From IMG/VR virus record IMGVR_UViG_3300032167_002503: DNA of 20,629 nt, one strand, 5' to 3'. The DNA is from a virus. The notes under the pieces are model-generated. The model was not told the origin of the DNA, ran no database searches, and saw nothing but the letters and a program-made list of their open reading frames with translations. This document shows, one piece after another, positions 2,746 to 14,097 of this stretch; the first letter of the stretch is position 1; each line of letters starts with the position of its first letter. The translations under genes were made by a program, and so were the position numbers.

Positions 2746-3138
2746 ATGAATATGGAAATGATTGCTCAGATTTTCGAGCTATGTATTCTCCCCCTGCTCG
2801 GTATTTTAACCAAGTTCCTCGTGGACTTCTTAAACGCAAAGCGTGATGAGGCTCATGCCAAAACCGATAGTGTAATCACTCAGAAGTATGTAGACATGAT
2901 CCACAAAACCATTACCGATTGCGTTATTGCTACCAACCAAACCTATGTTAATAGCTTAAAGGATGCGGGCACTTTTGATGAAGCGGCTCAAAAGGAAGCC
3001 TTTAATAAAACATTAAGTGCGGTGCTGGCAATTCTCACCGATGACGCCAAGGAATATATTACCGAGGCAACTGGCGATGTAAATACATATCTCACTCAGC
3101 TAATCGAGGCTGAAGTCAACAAGAATCGCAAAGCATGA
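2746..3138 (+). CDS. Holin-like small membrane protein (LL-H-type architecture). It has one N-terminal TM helix followed by a charged helical tail.
   Basis: The translation begins MNMEMIAQIFELCILPLLGILTKFLVDFL and continues with a K/E/D-rich helical region. GGAGG lies 9 nt upstream of the ATG. The assignment rests on architecture only. Confidence 0.4.
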   Translation: MNMEMIAQIFELCILPLLGILTKFLVDFLNAKRDEAHAKTDSVITQKYVDMIHKTITDCVIATNQTYVNSLKDAGTFDEAAQKEAFNKTLSAVLAILTDDAKEYITEATGDVNTYLTQLIEAEVNKNRKA

Positions 3139-5288: not shown

Positions 5289-5939
5289 ATGACAGAAAGA
5301 CTAAAAAGAATGAAAGAAACTCTAGCCTCTTGTGTCGAAGGGCAGCTTGGCAATCTGCAAAACGTCGATGCAAAAGAACTTGGCGAAGTAGTAGACATGG
5401 TGAAAGACCTTGAAGAGGCTATTTATTACTGTACTATTACAAAGTCCATGGAAGAAGCCGAACAAAAAGAAAAGCATACCGAGCATCACTATTATACGCC
5501 TATGTATTATCGTGATATGGATCGTTATGACCGTGGTAGAATGTACTACCCAATGATGGAAGAACCAATGTACTATGACGGCCAACCTCGCGACTCCCAG
5601 GGTCGTTTTATGGATGATGGACGTCGTCAGTATGGTGGCAATGGAAATGGTGGCGGCAATGGTGGTTCCACTCGCCAGTATCGAGAAATGGAAATGCCTA
5701 TTGACTGGAGAGATGAACGCGAAGGCCGCAGTCCCATGAGCCGTAAAATGTACATGGAGTCCAAGGAGATGCATAAAGATAAGGCCACTAAGCTCAAAGA
5801 CCTAGAGCACTACATGAAGGAATTGAGCGAAGACGTGGTAGAGATGATTAAAGACGCTAGCCCAGAAGAGAAGCAACTCTTGGAGAAAAAGATTAGTGCT
5901 CTTGCTACCAAGGTTGGTTCTTTGAACACAAGTGCTTAA
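5289..5939 (+). CDS. Tyr/Met/Arg-rich low-complexity protein (216 aa) with helical N- and C-terminal regions and a disordered Y-rich core.
   Basis: The core reads HHYYTPMYYRDMDRYDRGRMYYPMMEEPMYYDGQPRD...GGNGNGGGNGG. No recognised family. Confidence 0.55.
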   Translation: MTERLKRMKETLASCVEGQLGNLQNVDAKELGEVVDMVKDLEEAIYYCTITKSMEEAEQKEKHTEHHYYTPMYYRDMDRYDRGRMYYPMMEEPMYYDGQPRDSQGRFMDDGRRQYGGNGNGGGNGGSTRQYREMEMPIDWRDEREGRSPMSRKMYMESKEMHKDKATKLKDLEHYMKELSEDVVEMIKDASPEEKQLLEKKISALATKVGSLNTSA

Positions 5940-6243
5940 TATCAATGGGGAGGAGTGGAGACTGCTCTTCACTTCCTCCAATCATCCCGCGCTTATGAGA
6001 AGCGACGGCTCCTATACAATAGGCGCCTGTGACAATACGACAAAGGCTATCTATATTCGAGAAGGATTACCGCCAGCTCTCACAAAGAAAGTTCTATGCC
6101 ATGAGCTAACCCATGCTGCAATGTTTAGCTATGATGTAGAACTGTGTCTAGAACAAGAAGAATTGCTAGCTGATTTAATAGCCACATATGGTCAAGAGAT
6201 TATATCCATGACGAATGGTATATTCTCGAGACTAAGAAAATAA
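5932..6243 (+). CDS. Short ImmA/IrrE-family (M78-like) metallopeptidase-domain protein with an HExxH motif (103 aa).
   Basis: ...TKAIYIREGLPPALTKKVLCHELTHAAMFSY matches the 'I.IN..l....rRFTLAHELGH' core of COG2856/DUF955. Its start overlaps the upstream gene's end. Confidence 0.55.
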   Translation: MLNINGEEWRLLFTSSNHPALMRSDGSYTIGACDNTTKAIYIREGLPPALTKKVLCHELTHAAMFSYDVELCLEQEELLADLIATYGQEIISMTNGIFSRLRK

Positions 6244-6790: not shown

Positions 6791-7261
6791 TTACCAAGCA
6801 CACTGATTTTTCTTGATGTAGGCGGTACCGATGCAAATTGCATCGCTTTCATCCTGTGTGGCTTTAACATTGTATGTATTGGTAACATACTACTGTGCAT
6901 TACGCTTTTGCTCTGCACGCGCCTTACCTTTTACCCCAAGAGCGGATTTCCAGGTAACAGCCATAATAGTGGAATAGGGGATTTTGAGGAAAGTGAGAAG
7001 TTCCATCAAAACACCTTGTACTTGTGCCAATACTTTGAAAGTGAGAATATTGTTTTGCTCTTGAATATCCTCAAAGACTACCTCATCGGGGAAATAAGTG
7101 TCAATTAGTTCTTCTATCTTAAGACGAAACTTCTTCAGACGAACTCCTACGATTTCATCATCAAAAGTGAATTTTCCATAGTCATGAAGCTTGCCGTCTT
7201 TAAATACGGCCCAACCTGTGGTACGCGAAGACTAGTCGAGCGCCAGTATAGTATAACTCAT
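6791..7261 (-). CDS. RuvC-like Holliday-junction resolvase (156 aa). It has two in-frame TAGs (7232-7234, 6890-6892). Its ATG overlaps the TGA of the upstream endonuclease gene (ATGA).
   Basis: MSYTILALD X SSRTTGWAVFKDGKLHDYGKFTFDDEIVGVRLKKFRLKIEELIDTYFPDEVVFEDIQEQNN...TIMAVTWKSALGVKGKARAEQKRNAQ X YVTNTY...DESDAICIGTAYI carries RuvC hallmarks: an N-terminal I-L-x-L-D-x-S-x-x-T-G-[WY]-A, an E in (V/A)-(I/F)-E-x-x-F, and a C-terminal D-x-x-D-A-x-x-I. Without TAG read-through the catalytic N-terminus would be lost. Confidence 0.75.
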
Positions 7262-7920
7262 TCTTTAAACCTCCATTTATATCCATAGGCTGTAGTTCGA
7301 GCACCTCTACAAACCGCTAGGATATTACTAGCGCCACTTAAACCTTTGCCTATTGCTTTTGAAGCCTGGCCGCCAGATGGGTATTCCGCTAAAATATCGT
7401 TGGTTGTTTTATCAATCTGGAGCACTGGTTTAGCATTACTTGCTACGGTCCCCATCCTTGCCTATCGCGAAGCTTCTACTCCTTTTCGCTAGTCTTCGGG
7501 AGTTAAAAAATGTCGATTAGGATTATTTACAATCTTATCTCTATATTCCGCATTTTGCCAACGCTTTTTCATATGTTCTGACAATCTGCGGCGCCCATCC
7601 TCGGTTAAAAAGTCAGCATTTCCCGTTGGTTTACCACCCTAATGTAGGTTATATCCAAAATCAGGATTGGTTAATTGCATTTCTGCAATAACTTCTTTTT
7701 CTTTGTTTAGTGCCTCTTCCTCATTATCAAAGATAAAAATAACCTCTTTGATTATATTATCCCAACCATACTTCTAAATGGCTTTCCATACTAAGGGGCA
7801 TTTCTCGTAGCCTTCTCCGTGGCCTCCCCATCTTTTATTAAGACTTCTGGAAGTAAAACCGCAATAATGCTTGCCGTTTGGGAAAGTAAATAAATAAATT
7901 TTGTATTGCTTTTCTTGCAT
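7258..7920 (-). CDS. Free-standing GIY-YIG homing endonuclease (220 aa) with a C-terminal homing-endonuclease-type DNA-binding module. It has four in-frame TAGs (7774-7776, 7639-7641, 7489-7491, 7462-7464).
   Basis: MQEKQYKIYLFTFPNGKHYCGFTSRSLNKRWGGHGEGYEKCPLVWKAI X KYGWDNIIKEVIFIFDNEEEALNKEKEVIAEMQLTNPDFGYNLH X GG... shows the GIY-YIG motifs (KIY...YCG, R...H, E...N). The C-terminus ...ILAEYPSGGQASKAIGKGLSGASNILAVCRGARTTAYGYKWRF is the typical homing-endonuclease 'S...I...C.G.RK.A.GY.W' DNA-binding tail. The RBS AAAGGTGG is 7 nt upstream of the ATG. Confidence 0.8.
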
Positions 7921-7925
7921 AACAA

Positions 7926-7959
7926 AACCACCTTTCATTATATAATGAAAAAGGTGGTT
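7926..7959. promoter_or_regulatory. Hairpin with a 10-bp stem AACCACCTTT / AAAGGTGGTT. Its loop is the perfect palindrome TCATTATATAATGA, which reads TATAAT on both strands. The minus-strand copy of the stem contains the endonuclease gene's Shine-Dalgarno sequence.
   Basis: Seen directly. T-rich tracts follow on both strands (GATGATTTATTTATTTTTG on plus). Confidence 0.55.
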
Positions 7960-8028
7960 GATGATTTATTTATTTTTGACCAATCTACCAAAATTTTTCT
8001 TATTGGATTGATCATGTTGACATAAAAC

Positions 8029-8087
8029 AAATCACCTGCCGTTAAAAATTCTCATATATAATATATGAAAATTCCGGCAGGTGATTT
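8029..8087. repeat. Long imperfect palindrome/cruciform with 13-bp outer arms AAATCACCTGCCG / CGGCAGGTGATTT and an inner AT-rich near-palindrome. It sits between the dUTPase stop and the endonuclease gene. It could be a minus-strand terminator (followed by TTGTTTTATG) or a regulatory site.
   Basis: Seen directly. A plus-strand TTGACA lies at 8015-8020. Confidence 0.5.
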
Positions 8088-8116
8088 AATTGAGTTTGCC
8101 CAACGGCTTAAATTTT

Positions 8117-8683
8117 TTACACCGTCTGTCCAGTAGAACCGAAGCCGCCCATTCTCTTGCCGCTGGCGGCGTCATCATCGGTTACGCTATAAGTCTTGAT
8201 AATACCCTGGCCAATCTTATCTCCACGCTTAAGCTGAACAGCAAAAGGTAGAAGATTGATAACCTGGAAGAAAATCTCTCCCTCATTATCAGGGTTATCC
8301 GCGTAGTCGCGGTCGATAATGCCAATAGCATTACCAATAATCAGCCAATGCTTGAGAGGAGTAGAGCTACGAGCGCTCAACTCGAGATACTGACCAGGTT
8401 CAAGATACACCTTCATACCAGTAGAAACAAGAGGAACCTTAGCTTTAAGTTCCTTGGTCAGCTTGGCGACATCTTCCAAAGTAAGAGGGTTGATAAATCC
8501 ATAGAAGTCAACGCCTGGAGTGTGCATTACCTTCTCGTGGATTTTATCTTTGAGGAAGTCATAAGGGGGGATAACAATATCTTCTGCCACAACAAAATCG
8601 TAACCTGCGGAATCCGAGGTACCGCGCTGTGGCATGGGTAGATCAATGTCTGCAAATCTGGAAACCTTTTCAAACTTAATCAT
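8117..8683 (-). CDS. dut: dUTP diphosphatase (trimeric dUTPase).
   Basis: Motifs SAGYDF, RSS(T), IGIIDRDY and a C-terminal KRMGGFGSTG are present. Confidence 0.9.
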   Translation of the reverse strand: MIKFEKVSRFADIDLPMPQRGTSDSAGYDFVVAEDIVIPPYDFLKDKIHEKVMHTPGVDFYGFINPLTLEDVAKLTKELKAKVPLVSTGMKVYLEPGQYLELSARSSTPLKHWLIIGNAIGIIDRDYADNPDNEGEIFFQVINLLPFAVQLKRGDKIGQGIIKTYSVTDDDAASGKRMGGFGSTGQTV

Positions 8684-9582: not shown

Positions 9583-10125
9583 TTAAATTCTGTCAATCAG
9601 TAGTGCCCCTACTGCATTACCAGCGGCAACCACAAGTAAGAATAAGACTGACTCAAACGAAAGCGCATTGGCCATTAACACATAGCATAAATCAGCTATA
9701 CAGTGTTCGGCTCCGCACAGAATAAAACCAGCTACGCAAATAGGAACCATATAGTCTTTACCTCTGCGGTAACAAGCAACAGCACTATAAATGAAGATGC
9801 CACATATAACACCCTCAATGAAAGTAATGGGTAACGGTGCAGACAATTTGGTGGCAACCACTGAACCTGCGGAACCGATCGGAAAGACTAGGCTCCCGCA
9901 GGTTCCAATGATATTGCCAATCAGAATAACCAAGTTATCCCTTACATCTTCTTTACTCTTGATGTAGCCTACTGTGCCAGTGAATAACTTAAATTCCATA
10001 TTTAGAATTAAAAATAGTCCAATGGAGAACAGGAAGGCTCCAACAATTCCATTAAACTGTAAATAGATACAGCTTGCTATTGCTATGGATAAACCGCCGA
10101 GAATACTTTTCTCAAACAGTTTCAT
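9583..10125 (-). CDS. Compact multi-pass membrane protein with formate/nitrite transporter (FNT)-like signature motifs (180 aa).
   Basis: The ordered motifs FSIGLFLILNMEFKLFTGTV, GNIIG, GAEHCIADL and AGNAVGALL resemble the FocA blocks SLGLILCVVCGADLFTSTV, GNLVG, FEHSIAN and GNIIGG. There are five to six hydrophobic segments. It is about 100 aa shorter than canonical FNTs. The assignment comes from remembered motifs only. Confidence 0.4.
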   Translation of the reverse strand: MKLFEKSILGGLSIAIASCIYLQFNGIVGAFLFSIGLFLILNMEFKLFTGTVGYIKSKEDVRDNLVILIGNIIGTCGSLVFPIGSAGSVVATKLSAPLPITFIEGVICGIFIYSAVACYRRGKDYMVPICVAGFILCGAEHCIADLCYVLMANALSFESVLFLLVVAAGNAVGALLIDRI

Positions 10126-10594
10126 GAAGGTAAATCACCCTTTGGTTACGACTACCTCTCATGGGAAGCGTAATGTCACGCTCCTCTTCTTTATATGGGC
10201 CATCGATAATACAGTCGGCTAGCTCCAAGATTCTTTTCATGTGGTTGTCAGAGACTTTCAATAAGTCTTCGTATTGATAACCCGTCCAGATATAAACCTT
10301 GGTATTTGGCAGAGCCTTTTTAACTGATTCGATGACCAAGTGTGTCAAGAACAAATTGTCTTGACACAGTGGTTCTCCACCCATGATACACAGGTCTCTA
10401 TTGATATTATTGGCTTGTAGGCCTGCAATAATGGACTCAAGGGTTTGTGGAGTAAACTCTTTTCCTCCCTCAAAATCCCATGTCTCTTGGTTGTGACAGC
10501 CTTTGCAATGGAAAGGACAGCCTTGGGTAAAGAATGACAAGCACACACCTGGTGCTGATGAAAAATCGTTGTAAATGATACCACTATATCTCAT
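10112..10594 (-). CDS. nrdG: Anaerobic ribonucleotide reductase activating protein (radical SAM, NrdG).
   Basis: GCPFHCKGCHN is the CxxxCxxC cluster. The size and the position next to nrdD fit NrdG. Confidence 0.9.
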   Translation of the reverse strand: MRYSGIIYNDFSSAPGVCLSFFTQGCPFHCKGCHNQETWDFEGGKEFTPQTLESIIAGLQANNINRDLCIMGGEPLCQDNLFLTHLVIESVKKALPNTKVYIWTGYQYEDLLKVSDNHMKRILELADCIIDGPYKEEERDITLPMRGSRNQRVIYLHETV

Positions 10595-11241
10595 GCTTTA
10601 CTCTCCTCAATTTCTAACTCTAGGTCTTCAATATCATCCATATCATCGGTAATAATGTAATAATAAATACATGAGCAATATGGATGATACGGTGGAAGCG
10701 GTATGTTTTCATCTGCGGGATATTCTCCCTCATAGTCAGCACAACCACTCTCACAATCAGCCCCAGAGGTTTCTATTACAAGGATAGTTGCAACTGGAGC
10801 AATCTTATTTGAGATTACTCCATTGCGAATGATTAGAGTTTCATTCTCAAGCAGTCTATCCAACATGGTAGAAAGAAAGAGACTAATTTCTTTTTTGGAG
10901 TGTCCTTCTTCCACCATGAATTTTCCGGTTTGGCAATATTGCTTTATTCTTTCTTCAAGAGTTTTGCCGTCACTGCGATAAGTGAGCGATAATACATCTT
11001 CGATATCGAATTCTTTTACTTTCGAGTAAATTTTCTTCATTTCTTGAGATGTAAAACTATAAGCCTTAGTTAATGAGTCAATAAAGATTTCCAGTATTTT
11101 CTCACTACCTTCTTGCCAATCGAATATACCATCTATACATTTAAGCACAACAGACACAATTTTTTCAAGGTCTTTGTCCTTAGAGGACAAAAGCGATGAG
11201 TTCATGGCTTGTATCCTGGCTTTAAGTTCTGCCCTAGTCAT
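10591..11241 (-). CDS. Hypothetical protein between nrdD and nrdG (216 aa). The C-terminal region carries a PPYHPYCSC motif.
   Basis: ...CADYEGEYPADENIPLPPYHPYCSCIYYYI resembles the conserved PPxHPNCRC block of the phage Mu gpF / SPP1 gp7 family (PF04233). The link is weak. The C-terminal tail is acidic. Confidence 0.5.
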   Translation of the reverse strand: MTRAELKARIQAMNSSLLSSKDKDLEKIVSVVLKCIDGIFDWQEGSEKILEIFIDSLTKAYSFTSQEMKKIYSKVKEFDIEDVLSLTYRSDGKTLEERIKQYCQTGKFMVEEGHSKKEISLFLSTMLDRLLENETLIIRNGVISNKIAPVATILVIETSGADCESGCADYEGEYPADENIPLPPYHPYCSCIYYYIITDDMDDIEDLELEIEESKA

Positions 11242-13460
11242 TCTAGCCTACCTGCGTGCTTTACTCTATCATCAGCTTCAGAGATTTTTCCTTTATTAAA
11301 AGCAGTTTTATAGTTGCCAGTCAAATAGCCTGTAACTCTTCTGAGCTGCTGAATATTCTCGCTTTCACATACTGGGCAATGGTCGTTAAACTCGTCCATA
11401 AAACCACATTCAAGGCAGGTGTCATTTGGAACATTGATTGCAAAATAGGGGATGTCATGTTCCATGGCATAACGAACGAGAGTCTCTAAAGCGTCAATAT
11501 TGTGTTTTACTCCACTATCCAATTCAACATAGGTGATACAGCCAGCAGAAGAATATCCGGTGAGTTGGCACTCAATGTCAATCTTCTCGAAGGGAGACAT
11601 TTCTTTCCATACAGGTACGTGCATAGAGTTAGTAAAGTAATCTCTGTCAGACACGTTAGGAATCTCGCCATACTCCTCCTTAAACTTAGACATGGCGGTA
11701 TAGCAGAGGTTTTCTGCGGGTGTATAATACACACCGAAGTTTAACTTATACTCTTGCTTAAACTCAGCGCAGCGATCTTTGTATAGTTGCTCAATACGTT
11801 TAGCGAGTTCCATGCCGGCCGCAGTAGTATGGTCACAGCCAATCAAGATTTGCAGTGTTTCTGCCAAACCAAGCTGGCCGAGAGATAGTGTACCGTGTTG
11901 CAATGCACTACGAGTAGTTTTGCCATCATATCCTGCCATCAGACCATTTTCATACATGAACTTAGCACTTTCGGCAGGCTGTGCGCAGATATATTCAAAA
12001 CGTTCAATGAGTATATCTTTAGCTTCATGAATCTTCTGGTCTAGGAAATCCATAAAGGTTTCGACGCAAGAGTCATCTCCACTAGGATTATTCTCCCAGT
12101 ATTCTTTGGCTTGCATAGCAATAGTTGGCATGATAATGGTTACAGGGCAAATATTGCCGCGTCCATCTTTCTGTTGCTTGAGACCGTTAATATCGAAACC
12201 ATTAGCGGTTCTACAACCCATGGTGCTGAAATAAGTGCTAGGGTCATTGATATCATAACCAGCATTACCGCTCCAGTCAACGTTGGCGTAGTTTGGATAT
12301 AGACGAGTGGCAGTAGACTCTAAAGCCATGCGGAATAGGTCATAGTTGGGGTCGCCAGGTTTTTGGTTAACACCCTTCATGCACTGGAAAATTCCGCAAG
12401 GGAAGATAGAGGTCTTGCGCAGTTTGCCTAGACCCTCTTTGGATACTTCCAGCAGGGCCTTGGTTACCATGCGACCCTCTGGTAGAGTGCAAGTACCATA
12501 GTTGATAGAAGTGAATGGCAGTTGGTTACCACTACGAGATTGCAGGGTATTTAGGTTGTGGTACATACCCTCAACAGCCTGGTGGGTTTCCTTGATGGTC
12601 ATATCAAGAGCGTATTGATATGCAGCATCGAAAGTTTTATATCCTTCATCATCAATAGGCAAGCTATTGGTAATAACACCATCATACTTGGTAGTATCAA
12701 TGTTGAGGATATATTTACAACCTTCCTTCCAGTGCTTATAGAAGCTCTTGCGCACGTATGGAACCATGGTCCAGTCGAGGTGCGTAGCAGATACACCACC
12801 GAATTGTTGTAGACTTTGTAACTGGAAAATAACAGCCACAAGCTGGAAGGCAGTATTGATAGAGCCGGCTGGGCGTACATCAGTCTGACGAGTATTGAAA
12901 CCTCGTGCCAGCAGGTCATCAAAAGGAATGGATAAGCAGTTGTGCATACCAACGGCATATGCACTCAAATCGTGGATATAGATTTCATTGTTAAGATGAT
13001 TGCGGCGAGCCAGGTCTGAGACGCAGTAATCCAAGGCGTAACGCTTCATTTGAAGGTCACTACCGGCACCTACACGTCCGCCGAATGACATTTCGTCTAC
13101 ATTGGCGTTTTGGTTTTCAATGACTTGACCACTAATCTTCTCAGAGAAGGCTTTGATGAAATCATCGCTACCCTTACGGGCAACCTCTCTCTTGTATCTG
13201 TATCGAATGTATGCCTTGGCAACATCTCTACGCTCAGAACGCATGAGATAATCTTCAATCATGTCTTGAATAGTCTCTACGCTCATGGCATCAGAGTTGA
13301 TTTTTACGACATATTTAACTTCATCGGCGATGTCGTTAGCAGTATCTTCTTCATATAGTGTACCATCAACCTCGATGAAAGCCTTGTTGATAGCATTTAC
13401 GATACGGTCTCTGTCGAATGGCACAAGGACACCATTTCTCTTCTTTACTTGTAACATCAT
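11238..13460 (-). CDS. nrdD: Anaerobic ribonucleoside-triphosphate reductase (class III, NrdD), 740 aa.
   Basis: The N-terminal ATP-cone-like region, the C-terminal Zn ribbon CLECGF...CPVCES and the glycyl-radical motif RVTGYL are present. AAGGAGG RBS. Confidence 0.95.
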   Translation of the reverse strand: MMLQVKKRNGVLVPFDRDRIVNAINKAFIEVDGTLYEEDTANDIADEVKYVVKINSDAMSVETIQDMIEDYLMRSERRDVAKAYIRYRYKREVARKGSDDFIKAFSEKISGQVIENQNANVDEMSFGGRVGAGSDLQMKRYALDYCVSDLARRNHLNNEIYIHDLSAYAVGMHNCLSIPFDDLLARGFNTRQTDVRPAGSINTAFQLVAVIFQLQSLQQFGGVSATHLDWTMVPYVRKSFYKHWKEGCKYILNIDTTKYDGVITNSLPIDDEGYKTFDAAYQYALDMTIKETHQAVEGMYHNLNTLQSRSGNQLPFTSINYGTCTLPEGRMVTKALLEVSKEGLGKLRKTSIFPCGIFQCMKGVNQKPGDPNYDLFRMALESTATRLYPNYANVDWSGNAGYDINDPSTYFSTMGCRTANGFDINGLKQQKDGRGNICPVTIIMPTIAMQAKEYWENNPSGDDSCVETFMDFLDQKIHEAKDILIERFEYICAQPAESAKFMYENGLMAGYDGKTTRSALQHGTLSLGQLGLAETLQILIGCDHTTAAGMELAKRIEQLYKDRCAEFKQEYKLNFGVYYTPAENLCYTAMSKFKEEYGEIPNVSDRDYFTNSMHVPVWKEMSPFEKIDIECQLTGYSSAGCITYVELDSGVKHNIDALETLVRYAMEHDIPYFAINVPNDTCLECGFMDEFNDHCPVCESENIQQLRRVTGYLTGNYKTAFNKGKISEADDRVKHAGRLE

Positions 13461-13518
13461 ATTAAAAGTCCTCCTTGTCTATGGGATACACTATATATTG
13501 TGGTTTTGGGAAGGACGA

Positions 13519-14097
13519 TTAACTAAAATTGTCCGGCGTCTCAAAACTCATGACATGAGCCAGCACCATATCTACCGCACGCTGAATATCTCCAGGAGTC
13601 TCATTGGTAAGTTCATAGTCTGGCTGAAATCTCAGTTCAGAGAAGTCGTTTTCATCGGCGGAAAAGCGACGTATGATTTCCTGTACGTTAGGATTATCTT
13701 CTCTATTCAGCTATCTCAGTAGGCGCGTCTTATCTCCCGCCCGCACATAAAACACTGTTACGTCAATATCTTTGTTAGCCAGTAAGGAGCGCACTCCGGT
13801 TGGATTAAAGACGCCAATGTTAATGCTCTTGTTTGATAGGCAAGATTTAGCTGTTCCATAACACCAACCGTTAAAGGTTGTTGTTTCAAGCATATCACCA
13901 TTTACAGTTCGTTGAACAAACTCTTCATCAGTGAGATAGAAGTAGTTGACGCCTTCTTTCTCACCTTCCCTCATGGGGCGAGTGGTACAACTCACAATGT
14001 TATTGAAGTTATTTGGGAAACGGGTAGCTAAGGCGGTAGCGATAGTATCCTTACCGCTACCAGCCTTACCCATGATGGCAATTATCTTAGTCTTCAT
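13519..14097 (-). CDS. gmk: Guanylate kinase (192 aa), reading through one in-frame TAG at 13711-13713 to TAA at 13519-13521. The supplied 128-aa ORF is the TAG-truncated version.
   Basis: P-loop GKAGSGKDT and TTRPMREGEKEGVNYFYLTDEEF...FNGWCYGT are present. After the TAG the frame continues LNREDNPNVQEIIRRFSADENDFSELRFQPDYELTNETPGDIQRAVDMVLAHV. This matches the Gmk C-terminus (L..RL..Rg.(d/e)s.e.i..Rl..a..E......fDyvivNd..e.a...l). A 128-aa Gmk would lack that region. Confidence 0.75.

Follow-up and report, generated by a model that had tools for sequence, protein, structure and literature searches.

A short FNT-family membrane protein encoded beside the class III ribonucleotide reductase genes of a gut-type phage

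[quoted passage not shown] We call this protein mini-FNT. It retains the six transmembrane (TM) segments and the pore signature of the family, and its relatives recur next to nrdD and nrdG in divergent phages. We consider it moderately probable that mini-FNT is an ungated channel for formate or formic acid that feeds the phage class III RNR; as its substrate we infer formate, and as its direction uptake.

The window contains a holin, a DnaE-type polymerase, a Dda-like helicase and a dUTPase, which identify it as phage DNA and bear out the view of the earlier note that the channel-like gene is phage-encoded. The phage is of the gut type. The features used below are as follows.

9583..10125, minus strand: mini-FNT gene, 180 aa, six-TM FNT-family protomer (PF01226, hhalign, AF2, Foldseek, dN/dS)
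9691..9711, minus strand: AEHCIAD, S-loop motif, residues 139-145, with E140 (FocA E208), invariant H141 (FocA H209) and D145 (FocA N213)
9970..9987, minus strand: LFTGTV, Omega-loop motif, residues 47-52, with L47 (FocA L89) and invariant T49 (FocA T91)
10112..10142, minus strand: junction of nrdG and mini-FNT, with a 14-nt overlap and a Shine-Dalgarno-like element upstream
10112..10594, minus strand: nrdG, class III RNR activase, 160 aa (TIGR02491, 141.2 bits against a cutoff of 126.1; PF13353; phrog_626)
10591..11241, minus strand: ORF216, 216 aa, function not assigned, between nrdD and nrdG
11238..13460, minus strand: nrdD, class III (anaerobic) ribonucleoside-triphosphate reductase with ATP-cone, 740 aa (PF13597, 468 bits; TIGR02487, 471.6 bits)
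12210..12221, minus strand: MGCR finger-loop motif of NrdD, residues 414-417, of the single-cysteine, Met-containing, formate-dependent type
2746..3138: holin (phrog_13712, 105 bits)

The earlier note gave positions 9583-10594 for its observation; this span holds two genes, mini-FNT and nrdG. It also placed the membrane protein directly downstream of nrdD-nrdG. This is correct for nrdG, which overlaps the mini-FNT gene; however, nrdD and nrdG are not contiguous in the window because ORF216 intervenes. The mini-FNT gene begins before nrdG has ended: its ATG (10125-10123) falls within the final five nrdG codons and is preceded by a Shine-Dalgarno-like AAGGGTG at 10142-10136. A promoter and terminator scan of the window found no terminator between the two genes; its counts were at the level of shuffled sequence and its promoter-like sites at chance level. 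Because of the overlap, the Shine-Dalgarno-like element and the lack of an intervening terminator, mini-FNT is likely to be translationally coupled to nrdG.

ORF216 is probably an independent mobile insertion that forms part of the transcription unit. It is missing at the corresponding site in a 94%-identical relative (L001), and homologs with 42-44% identity are placed between nrdG and the FNT gene in other phages. Its only PHROG matches are weak ones to head-morphogenesis families, confined to its C-terminus. The window contains a second ORF of 216 aa; paralogy of the two was considered and rejected, the ORFs being unrelated.

Assignment of mini-FNT to the FNT family is supported by several methods. 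The protein matches PF01226 with 56.1 bits (gathering score 34.6, E = 4.7e-15), query residues 2-176 aligning to profile positions 20-232 of 240, and all of the 120 homologs listed carry the same domain. With hhalign, it aligns to FocA of E. coli over FocA residues 29-269 (probability 97.7%, E = 1.4e-12). The AF2 monomer model (pLDDT 97.0, pTM 0.91) has helices at residues 3-24, 26-43, 48-54, 58-80, 98-120, 126-136, 142-151 and 157-179, corresponding to TM1, TM2a/2b, TM3, TM4, TM5a/5b and TM6; TM2 and TM5 are each broken by a loop (the Omega loop and the S loop, respectively), giving an aquaporin-like six-TM protomer. The best 50 Foldseek matches in the PDB are all FNT channels (TMq 0.80-0.91). 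Thus, the proposal of a 180-aa FNT-type membrane protein with a compatible topology is upheld by both profile and structure comparisons. By analogy with all solved FNTs, mini-FNT presumably forms a pentamer.

On the other hand, scores against the finer NCBIfam models are far below their cutoffs: 22 bits against 290.1 and 11.4 against 440 for the FocA equivalogs TIGR04060 and NF008069, and 21 bits against 232.3 for the generic fnt subfamily TIGR00790. Therefore, none of the characterised FNTs is orthologous to mini-FNT. When known structures are scored with the profile of the short family, FocA of V. cholerae gives 79.6 bits, the hydrosulfide channel HSC 74.5 bits and NirC, the weakest bacterial PDB match, 55 bits. 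Within the FNT family, mini-FNT falls in a short, uncharacterised subfamily.

The four FocA-like blocks that had been picked out by eye occur in the order given, namely LFTGTV (47-52), GNIIG (70-74), AEHCIAD (139-145) and GNAVG (169-173), and they stay in register in a proper alignment, where LFTG contains the equivalent of T91, AEHCIAD those of E208-H209 and N213, and GNAVG that of N262. FocA residues F75, L79, L89, T91, K156, F202, E208, H209 and N262 are identical in mini-FNT. In mini-FNT numbering, the hydrophobic constrictions are F33, L37, L47 and F134, the central pair is T49-H141, the vestibule lysine is K93, and E140, D145 and N170 are structural; T49, H141, F33, L47, F134 and N170 are invariant across 99 family members. 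For the set F75, L79, L89, F202, K156, N172, E208, N213 and N262 of FocA, seven of nine are conserved, and the two exceptions are N172, replaced by Gly, and N213, replaced by Asp. Gly is a natural variant at N172, and the FocA variant N213D is near-native (PMC9380403).

The size difference noted earlier, roughly 100 residues relative to known FNTs, is also real: 180 aa compares with 285 in FocA and 261-268 in HSC and NirC (88-105 residues). The missing part comprises the N-terminal gating helix of FocA, loops and the C-terminal tail, while all six TM segments are kept. Residue 1 of mini-FNT corresponds to residue 32 of FocA, and the alignment ends at about FocA residue 272, so that the alignment covers neither the cytoplasmic N-terminal domain nor the tail. 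A longer reading frame upstream is impossible: going upstream from its ATG, the frame meets a stop codon before any further start. In FocA, the N-terminal domain is required for translocation in both directions (PMC8914244), and C-terminal residues are also required (Hunger 2017, cited in PMC8115048). Since these required elements are absent, the mode of action of mini-FNT cannot be exactly that of FocA. A partner might be needed, and we infer that mini-FNT lacks gating.

The adjacent NrdD is predicted to be of the formate-dependent type. Its C175, M414-G-C416-R and G711 align to C175, M382-G-C384-R and G681 of the E. coli enzyme, which means that it has the beta-A cysteine, a one-cysteine MGCR finger loop with the upstream methionine, and the C-terminal glycyl-radical glycine. 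The MGCR finger loop marks formate-dependent reduction in NrdD (PMC9669993), and formate is the reductant of the E. coli, T4 and L. lactis enzymes (PMC4390871). The finger loop was retrieved for 50 linked NrdDs, and it reads TMGCRT in every one of them; note that this test is necessary but not discriminating, because the MGCR type is also the common type in phages. The nrdDG genes of phage T4, E. coli and L. lactis, which share this finger loop, the beta-A cysteine, the glycyl-radical glycine and the activase family with the window, have no associated transporter, unlike those of the window.

Linkage between the short FNT and class III RNR extends well beyond the window. NrdD and/or NrdG was found within 6 kb of the FNT gene in 60 of 80 IMG/VR loci, counted with iterated HMMs (tblastn undercounts NrdD; the divergent NrdD of locus L084, for example, was recovered by Pfam). 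After dereplication at 70% FNT identity, 19 of 32 viral clusters are linked. With D, G and F standing for nrdD, nrdG and FNT, the gene orders are DGF in nine clusters, DFG in four, GF in two, and DF, FG, FDG and an opposite-strand arrangement in one each, and the gap between FNT and the nearest nrd ORF is at most 216 nt in 16 of the 19. The linkage holds for FNT identities as low as 33% and NrdD identities as low as about 45%. The adjacency across divergent phages in several gene orders, together with the MGCR-type NrdD, strengthens the idea of the earlier note that the channel is coupled to class III RNR, and the recurrence of the pair in many unrelated phages suggests a phage-borne reductant supply line for DNA precursors. 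However, the short FNT family is not dedicated to RNR, because for 13 of the 32 viral clusters, and likewise for about 90% of the copies in bacteria, no nrdDG lies within 6 kb. The adjacency is rare in bacterial genomes, with eight of 80 loci, and no fewer than four of these eight are binned phage; it is present, though, on one clearly chromosomal contig, from Christensenella (L151).

Under the interpretation that we favour, mini-FNT would be co-transcribed with nrdD-nrdG, probably with translational coupling, and expressed as part of the replication and nucleotide-metabolism module, at an early stage of infection. Formate or formic acid would cross the host membrane through the mini-FNT pore, and cytoplasmic formate would equilibrate with the formate-rich anaerobic surroundings or, alternatively, would be concentrated from them under an inside-alkaline pH gradient. 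It would serve as the stoichiometric reductant of the MGCR-type NrdD, one formate being oxidised to CO2 per dNTP, and viral dNTP synthesis would be freed from host formate production and FocA/PflB gating. If this is true, phages of anaerobes bring along a supply line for the sacrificial reductant in addition to the anaerobic dNTP enzyme, which would be a new auxiliary metabolic gene logic, co-substrate provision, and would link the replication of phages in the gut and rumen to formate cross-fed within these communities.

A stronger version of this proposal, which we think unlikely, is that the phage NrdD docks physically onto mini-FNT at the membrane, so that the two make up a viral equivalent of the FocA-PflB pair in which imported formate is handed directly to the active site. 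In both pairs a channel would be combined with a glycyl-radical enzyme, NrdD and PflB being structurally related. The smallest known FNT would then be a partner-gated channel, and dNTP synthesis would be self-contained and fed by the environment. Such a complex would have to use a new interface, because the N-terminal docking domain of FocA is absent.

The competing explanation that survives best, to which we assign a small but appreciable probability, is that mini-FNT is a working FNT channel whose substrate is some other weak acid or small anion, for instance nitrite, hydrosulfide, lactate/acetate or bicarbonate. It could clear nitrite/NO- or sulfide-type compounds that poison the Fe-S and glycyl-radical system of NrdD/NrdG, which is sensitive to oxygen and radicals, or it could be unrelated to RNR, as the many family members located away from nrdDG would allow. 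Channels for formate, nitrite, hydrosulfide and lactate share their pore core, as do all FNT subfamilies (PMC8914244), and because of this the substrate of an FNT cannot be read from its sequence. The closest solved structures are in fact those of HSC (FNT3) of Clostridioides difficile (PDB 3TDO and others; best Foldseek matches, TMq 0.90-0.91, rmsd 1.8 A, 22-24% identity), a protein that, at 268 aa and with an N-terminal helix, is longer than mini-FNT but also comes from Bacillota, and its score with the family profile is near that of FocA. HSC is linked to the asrABC sulfite reductase genes, and no asrABC-type neighbour was found at any short FNT examined. In addition, relatives are automatically named 'nitrite transporter NirC' by JGI, and the only published viral FNT was read as a nitrite transporter (PMC8115048). 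Against nitrite, NirC scores lowest among the bacterial matches to the family profile.

Gene context points to formate rather than to these other substrates. At the copies examined, no adjoining gene for nitrite reductase, sulfite reductase or lactate metabolism was seen, and the single partner gene that recurs in phages encodes an enzyme that consumes formate. Bacterial contexts are diverse, and no single conserved operon partner that would name the substrate was found; the only informative one is at four Finegoldia loci, where the short FNT lies between fdhD (PF02634, 174 bits) and moeA/mobAB, genes that mature formate dehydrogenase. FdhC-type FNTs are encoded in formate dehydrogenase clusters. 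The Finegoldia arrangement (fdhD-FNT-moeA-mobAB) follows the same logic, a formate channel with formate-oxidising machinery, although it is bacterial rather than phage-borne. As for PflB, no homolog occurs in any viral locus, and a PflB-like gene lies 2 kb away in one bacterial locus (L100).

A quite unlikely explanation of the adjacency is a single capture of FNT next to nrdDG in an ancestral phage module, followed by passive inheritance, so that the adjacency would say nothing about function. FNT and NrdD identities to the window do drop roughly together across loci, as co-inheritance predicts, and a few related large-phage lineages, which share DnaE, guanylate kinase and dUTPase neighbours, account for most of the linked loci. 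Linked copies are scattered among unlinked ones over the neighbour-joining (NJ) tree of the family, which argues against a single capture, but since this tree has no support values, it does not separate one ancient linkage from repeated recruitment. Passive inheritance fits poorly with the strong purifying selection on mini-FNT (dN/dS = 0.11 against L001) and with the pore residues invariant in 99 sequences. A dN/dS value for L016 was set aside, because the coordinates used were guesses and probably out of frame. Moreover, the adjacency survives changes of order (DGF, DFG, FDG, FG, GF and opposite strand) and the coming and going of other genes (ORF216/211 and introns), and it is also present on the Christensenella chromosomal contig.

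It is very unlikely that the channel works outward, as a formate safety valve (or in pH homeostasis) once the fermentation of the host is upset by phage takeover, its place beside nrdDG reflecting shared early-gene regulation only. Efflux is the main role of FocA in exponential fermentation (PMC8914244); exit of the anion is favoured by the membrane potential, and an FNT without the gating N-terminus could act as an open efflux pore. However, such a pore would deplete the substrate of the adjoining NrdD, and the repeated association with nrdD/nrdG in several orders would be left unexplained, as any early-region site would do. In addition, the central His, which is needed in FocA for uptake and not for efflux (PMC8914244), is invariant in the short family.

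That the FNT scaffold serves as a membrane-active phage protein (a holin or pinholin, a depolarising factor or a superinfection-exclusion factor) is hardly credible: mini-FNT is small, very hydrophobic (68% apolar residues plus Gly) and without a PHROG family, but the complete FNT pore signature is kept, and hundreds of bacterial species have chromosomal homologs in housekeeping contexts. The holin role in particular is rejected because the window has a separate, dedicated holin and mini-FNT is encoded within the replication and nucleotide module rather than the lysis module. Some relatives are placed among small phage ORFs without assigned function.

Returning to the formate channel that we favour, among its closest known parallels is the focA-pflB operon of E. 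coli, V. cholerae and Salmonella. FocA has the same fold (Foldseek TMq 0.81-0.89), is the best match to the family profile, and shares the constrictions, the central Thr and His and the vestibule Lys. Both genes lie beside those of a glycyl-radical enzyme and its activase, and formate would link the gene products. The differences are that mini-FNT is 105 residues shorter, with trimmed loops and neither the N-terminal cytoplasmic domain nor the C-terminal tail, that it carries the substitutions N172G, N213D, S210C and D88K, and that its partner NrdD consumes formate whereas PflB produces it.

A viral precedent is the cyanophage focA-nirA auxiliary metabolic gene pair, in which an FNT under purifying selection is encoded next to the enzyme acting on the anion it transports (Gazitua et al. 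2020, PMC8115048). That FNT is a full-length nitrite transporter of the cyanobacterial type, 86% identical to Prochlorococcus FocA, with a charged C-terminal regulatory region, and is linked to nitrite reductase on a single marine scaffold (PMC8115048). The short FNTs differ in forming a distinct minimal subfamily, present on at least 99 IMG/VR contigs, with linkage to class III RNR. If the proposed function holds, they define a large, unstudied FNT subfamily that dispenses with the N- and C-terminal gating elements of FocA, and the short FNT would be a natural minimal model of FNT pores and a compact part for formate-uptake engineering.

Among 50,697 deposited phage records, a megablast search with the whole window gave no match, and tblastn with the FNT detected one relative only, on an unannotated 4.6-kb fragment. 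The subfamily as a whole comprises more than 1000 clusters at 50% identity, with lengths of about 180-200 aa, and its carriers are mostly anaerobic Bacillota and uncultivated phages.

The window is phage DNA: it encodes a holin, a DNA invertase, a DnaE-type polymerase, a Dda-like helicase, guanylate kinase, dUTPase and NrdDG, and its nearest relative is a 115-kb metagenomic contig carrying the same module. The genes considered here are arranged as follows.

9583..10125, minus strand: gene of the 180-aa formate/nitrite-transporter-family protein (mini-FNT; PF01226 match)
10112..10594, minus strand: nrdG (TIGR02491, 141 bits; cutoff 126)
10591..11241, minus strand: 216-aa ORF between nrdD and nrdG (ORF call)
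11238..13460, minus strand: nrdD (PF13597, 468 bits)

The region 9583-10594, given in an earlier note for the membrane protein, holds two genes, mini-FNT and nrdG. The position claimed for it, directly downstream of nrdD-nrdG, is correct for nrdG, with which it shares a 14-nt overlap, but nrdD and nrdG are not contiguous, because the 216-aa ORF separates them. The mini-FNT ATG, which falls within the final five nrdG codons, has an AAGGGTG element 10 nt upstream, and a promoter/terminator scan found no terminator between the two genes; mini-FNT is probably translationally coupled to nrdG. The ORF cannot be extended upstream, since its start is the first start codon past an upstream stop.

Mini-FNT is a member of the FNT family, and is not FocA, NirC or HSC (formate, nitrite and hydrosulfide channels of the family). 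A PF01226 (Form_Nir_trans) search gave 56.1 bits over profile positions 20-232 of 240, which exceeds the gathering score (34.6). The four motifs singled out in the earlier note occur in the order it gave (LFTGTV 47-52, GNIIG 70-74, AEHCIAD 139-145 and GNAVG 169-173), and their region aligns properly: a profile built from 17 relatives matches residues 29-269 of the E. coli formate channel FocA with a probability of 97.7% (E 1.4e-12). A 99-sequence family profile matches all FNTs of solved structure (V. cholerae FocA 79.6 bits, HSC 74.5, Salmonella FocA 72, E. coli FocA 67, LCIA 65, NirC 55 and PfFNT 45). The AlphaFold2 model obtained from a 99-sequence alignment (pLDDT 97.0, pTM 0.91) has a compatible topology, in which the helices follow the FNT plan with TM2 (26-43/48-54) and TM5 (126-136/142-151) broken, and the best 50 Foldseek matches in the PDB are FNT channels only (query-normalised TM-score 0.80-0.91). 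The sequence and the monomer model cover four of the six features that define an FNT, and all four are present; the other two are pentamer assembly and transport. Judged by NCBIfam scores (FocA 22 bits against a cutoff of 290, fnt 21 against 232), mini-FNT is not orthologous to any characterised FNT. We consider it very probably a functional channel of the family.

About 105 residues are missing relative to FocA, in agreement with the earlier estimate of roughly 100, and they do not amount to the loss of any pore domain. According to the alignment, the N-terminal cytoplasmic helix (FocA 1-31) is absent, every inter-helix loop is trimmed (the TM5-TM6 loop accounts for about 24 residues), and the final ~13 residues of FocA have no counterpart. 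Identical pore residues (FocA/mini-FNT) are F75/F33, L79/L37, L89/L47, T91/T49, K156/K93, F202/F134, E208/E140, H209/H141 and N262/N170, of which F33, L47, T49, F134, H141 and N170 are invariant among 99 family members. Two important FocA residues differ: N172 is replaced by Gly, the sole natural variant at that position in the FocA mutagenesis literature, and N213 by Asp, a substitution that leaves FocA close to native for efflux and uptake alike (PMC9380403). The central His of FocA, required for uptake and dispensable for efflux according to PMC8914244, is conserved without exception in the 99 members. Against the 94%-identical relative L001, dN/dS is 0.11 for mini-FNT, 0.04 for nrdG and 0.02 for nrdD, and the mini-FNT gene evolves under purifying selection. 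Mini-FNT is a full FNT pore kept by selection and encoded within an early operon of replication and nucleotide genes.

Mini-FNT contains eight Cys. C108 (~9802-9804), beside the FocA N172 position, and C142 (~9700-9702), at the S210 position, adjoin the Thr/His pore centre and are invariant or nearly so across the short-FNT family.

In a word-indexed search 126 relatives came up; almost all have 168-220 aa, and PF01226 is present in every one among the matches listed. An exhaustive search of 1.84 billion representatives gave 1025 clusters at E <= 1e-30, the best 150 of which are almost all 176-249 aa, which makes the short form a large discrete subfamily rather than a truncation. Its signature, [EP]HCIADx[CF]Y, occurs in 357 species-representative bacterial genomes, mainly of anaerobic Bacillota (Lachnospiraceae, Coprococcus, Eubacterium, Finegoldia, Oscillospiraceae, Christensenella, Erysipelotrichaceae) with a minority in Fibrobacter and Lentisphaerota, and relatives are found on at least 99 IMG/VR viral contigs. 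PHROGs has no family matching mini-FNT, and among 50,697 deposited phage genomes only a single unannotated 4.6-kb record encodes a relative. A 2017 FNT phylogeny, in which N-terminal segments average 25-55 residues, has no mention of phages or of a minimal-length group (PMC5525234). In the literature searched, a viral FNT is reported once, on a marine cyanophage scaffold (PMC8115048); that focA is full-length, of cyanobacterial type, adjacent to nirA and read as nitrite assimilation, whereas the window has the short form by nrdDG. A search combining formate nitrite transporter, phage and ribonucleotide reductase found no paper, and in a phage RNR survey formate appears only within the name pyruvate formate-lyase.

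In Bacteroides acidifaciens-type contigs (L002-L005), a relative 55-56% identical (8001..8723 in L002) is called with a 60-residue N-terminal extension, which may be a mis-start. Its neighbours, in what resembles a prophage, are LemA, NADAR, an RnlB antitoxin, a BPD_transp_1 permease, PspA, an NMT1/OmpA protein and a Sak-type recombinase; there is no nrdDG nearby.

Loci were counted as linked when iterated HMMs run on all ORFs placed NrdD and/or NrdG no more than 6 kb from the FNT. By this definition 60 of 80 IMG/VR loci are linked, 54 having both genes; in two of the 20 unlinked loci the contig breaks off at the FNT itself. Dereplicated at 70% FNT identity, the loci form 32 clusters, of which 19 are linked, and in 16 of the 19 the nearest nrd ORF is at most 216 nt away. 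The order is nrdD-nrdG-FNT in nine clusters, nrdD-FNT-nrdG in four, nrdG-FNT in two, and nrdD-FNT, FNT-nrdG, FNT-nrdD-nrdG and an opposite-strand arrangement in one each. Linkage is still seen in loci whose FNT is as little as 33% and whose NrdD is about 45% identical, and in a neighbour-joining tree drawn without support values linked copies are interspersed with unlinked viral and bacterial ones. Linkage is rare by contrast in bacterial genomes, at 8 of 80 loci, and the eight include phage contigs binned into MAGs (L096-L099), one of which, L099, carries the same DnaE-guanylate kinase-nrdD module. Another of the eight, L151 (Christensenella), is clearly chromosomal, with housekeeping genes on its flanks and a divergent nrdG-nrdD about 600 nt from the FNT.

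The four MAG contigs (GTDB, 59-149 kb) are whole phage genomes or fragments with a DnaE-kinase-nrdD-nrdG-FNT module; their labels (Eubacterium, Oscillospiraceae, Clostridium, Bacilli) hint weakly at Bacillota hosts, and their presence in these bins is also contamination.

Formate is the reductant for NrdD of E. coli, T4 and L. lactis (PMC4390871), whereas SCCR/MCCR enzymes can use thioredoxin (PMC9669993). In the window's NrdD, C175, M414-G-C416-R and G711 align with E. coli C175, M382-G-C384-R and G681, and the finger loop is TMGCRT in all 50 FNT-linked NrdDs with a retrievable loop. This test is necessary and weakly discriminating, because MGCR, the motif of formate-dependent NrdD, is also the usual phage type. 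Bacterial short-FNT neighbourhoods vary widely. The clearest hint of formate among them comes from four Finegoldia loci (L119, L133, L142 and L145, including F. magna DSM 20470), where the gene is flanked by fdhD (PF02634, 174 bits) and moeA/mobA-mobB, maturation genes of molybdenum formate dehydrogenase (5228..8814 in L145). No viral locus has a PflB homolog. In Pseudobutyrivibrio ruminis (L100, 4878..5462 and 7442..8143), the short FNT is followed ~2-2.7 kb downstream by a glycyl-radical enzyme of PflB-like type and an ORF resembling an activase, a layout that recalls focA-pflB.

We slightly favour a role for mini-FNT in supplying formate to the phage RNR. According to PMC8914244 and PMC12559229, FNTs pass formate/formic acid both ways and the central His enables proton-coupled uptake, from which we infer that mini-FNT would admit formic acid into the infected cell; an inside-alkaline pH gradient would make formate accumulate in the cytoplasm, to be oxidised there by NrdD, one formate per dNTP. 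The main caveat is that the N-terminal gate and C-tail, on which FocA itself depends, are absent, so that mini-FNT is probably ungated or otherwise gated. Carriage of another anion, such as nitrite, hydrosulfide or lactate, is a less likely reading: the pore core is common to all FNTs and HSC is the top structural match, but a matching reductase is never adjacent among the copies examined. Passive hitch-hiking beside nrdDG is improbable given the varying gene orders, the purifying selection and the one chromosomal instance of linkage, and an efflux or pH valve slightly more so, as the His is invariant and the partner specific. A membrane-active lysis or exclusion protein is hardly credible in a replication module of a phage with a separate holin, bacterial housekeeping homologs being common.

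Several observations concern possible gene insertions. The 216-aa ORF at 10591..11241 is missing from the nrdD/nrdG junction of L001, and homologs of 42-44% identity occupy the nrdG/FNT junction in other phages (L006 5382..6017; L028-L045 around 5391..6008); it behaves as one that inserts independently and may be mobile. From its C-terminus (PPYHPYCSC) come no more than weak matches to PHROG head-morphogenesis families (MuF/SPP1 gp7-like), and paralogy with the 216-aa ORF at 5289..5939 was rejected, the two being unrelated. In L055, L064, L074, L075 and L088 the NrdD match is split, the alignment ending right after 'TMG', before the catalytic Cys of MGCR, which points to the insertion of an intron, an intein or a homing endonuclease exactly at the active-site codon. 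Upstream of nrdD, within 13461..14097 (minus strand), the guanylate kinase ORF has only 128 aa, compared with 181-192 aa in relatives, and a gap of ~250 nt comes after it; at this position L001 (6211..7313) has a full-length kinase and a GIY-YIG ORF. The shortened gene and gap may be left over from a homing endonuclease that was gained or lost. Two small minus-strand ORFs, 7258..7455 ('...TTAYGYKWRFKE') and 7774..7938 ('YKIYLFTFPNGKHYCGFT...'), located between the dUTPase region and the divergent gene block, look like fragments of a putative GIY-YIG/NUMOD-type homing endonuclease.
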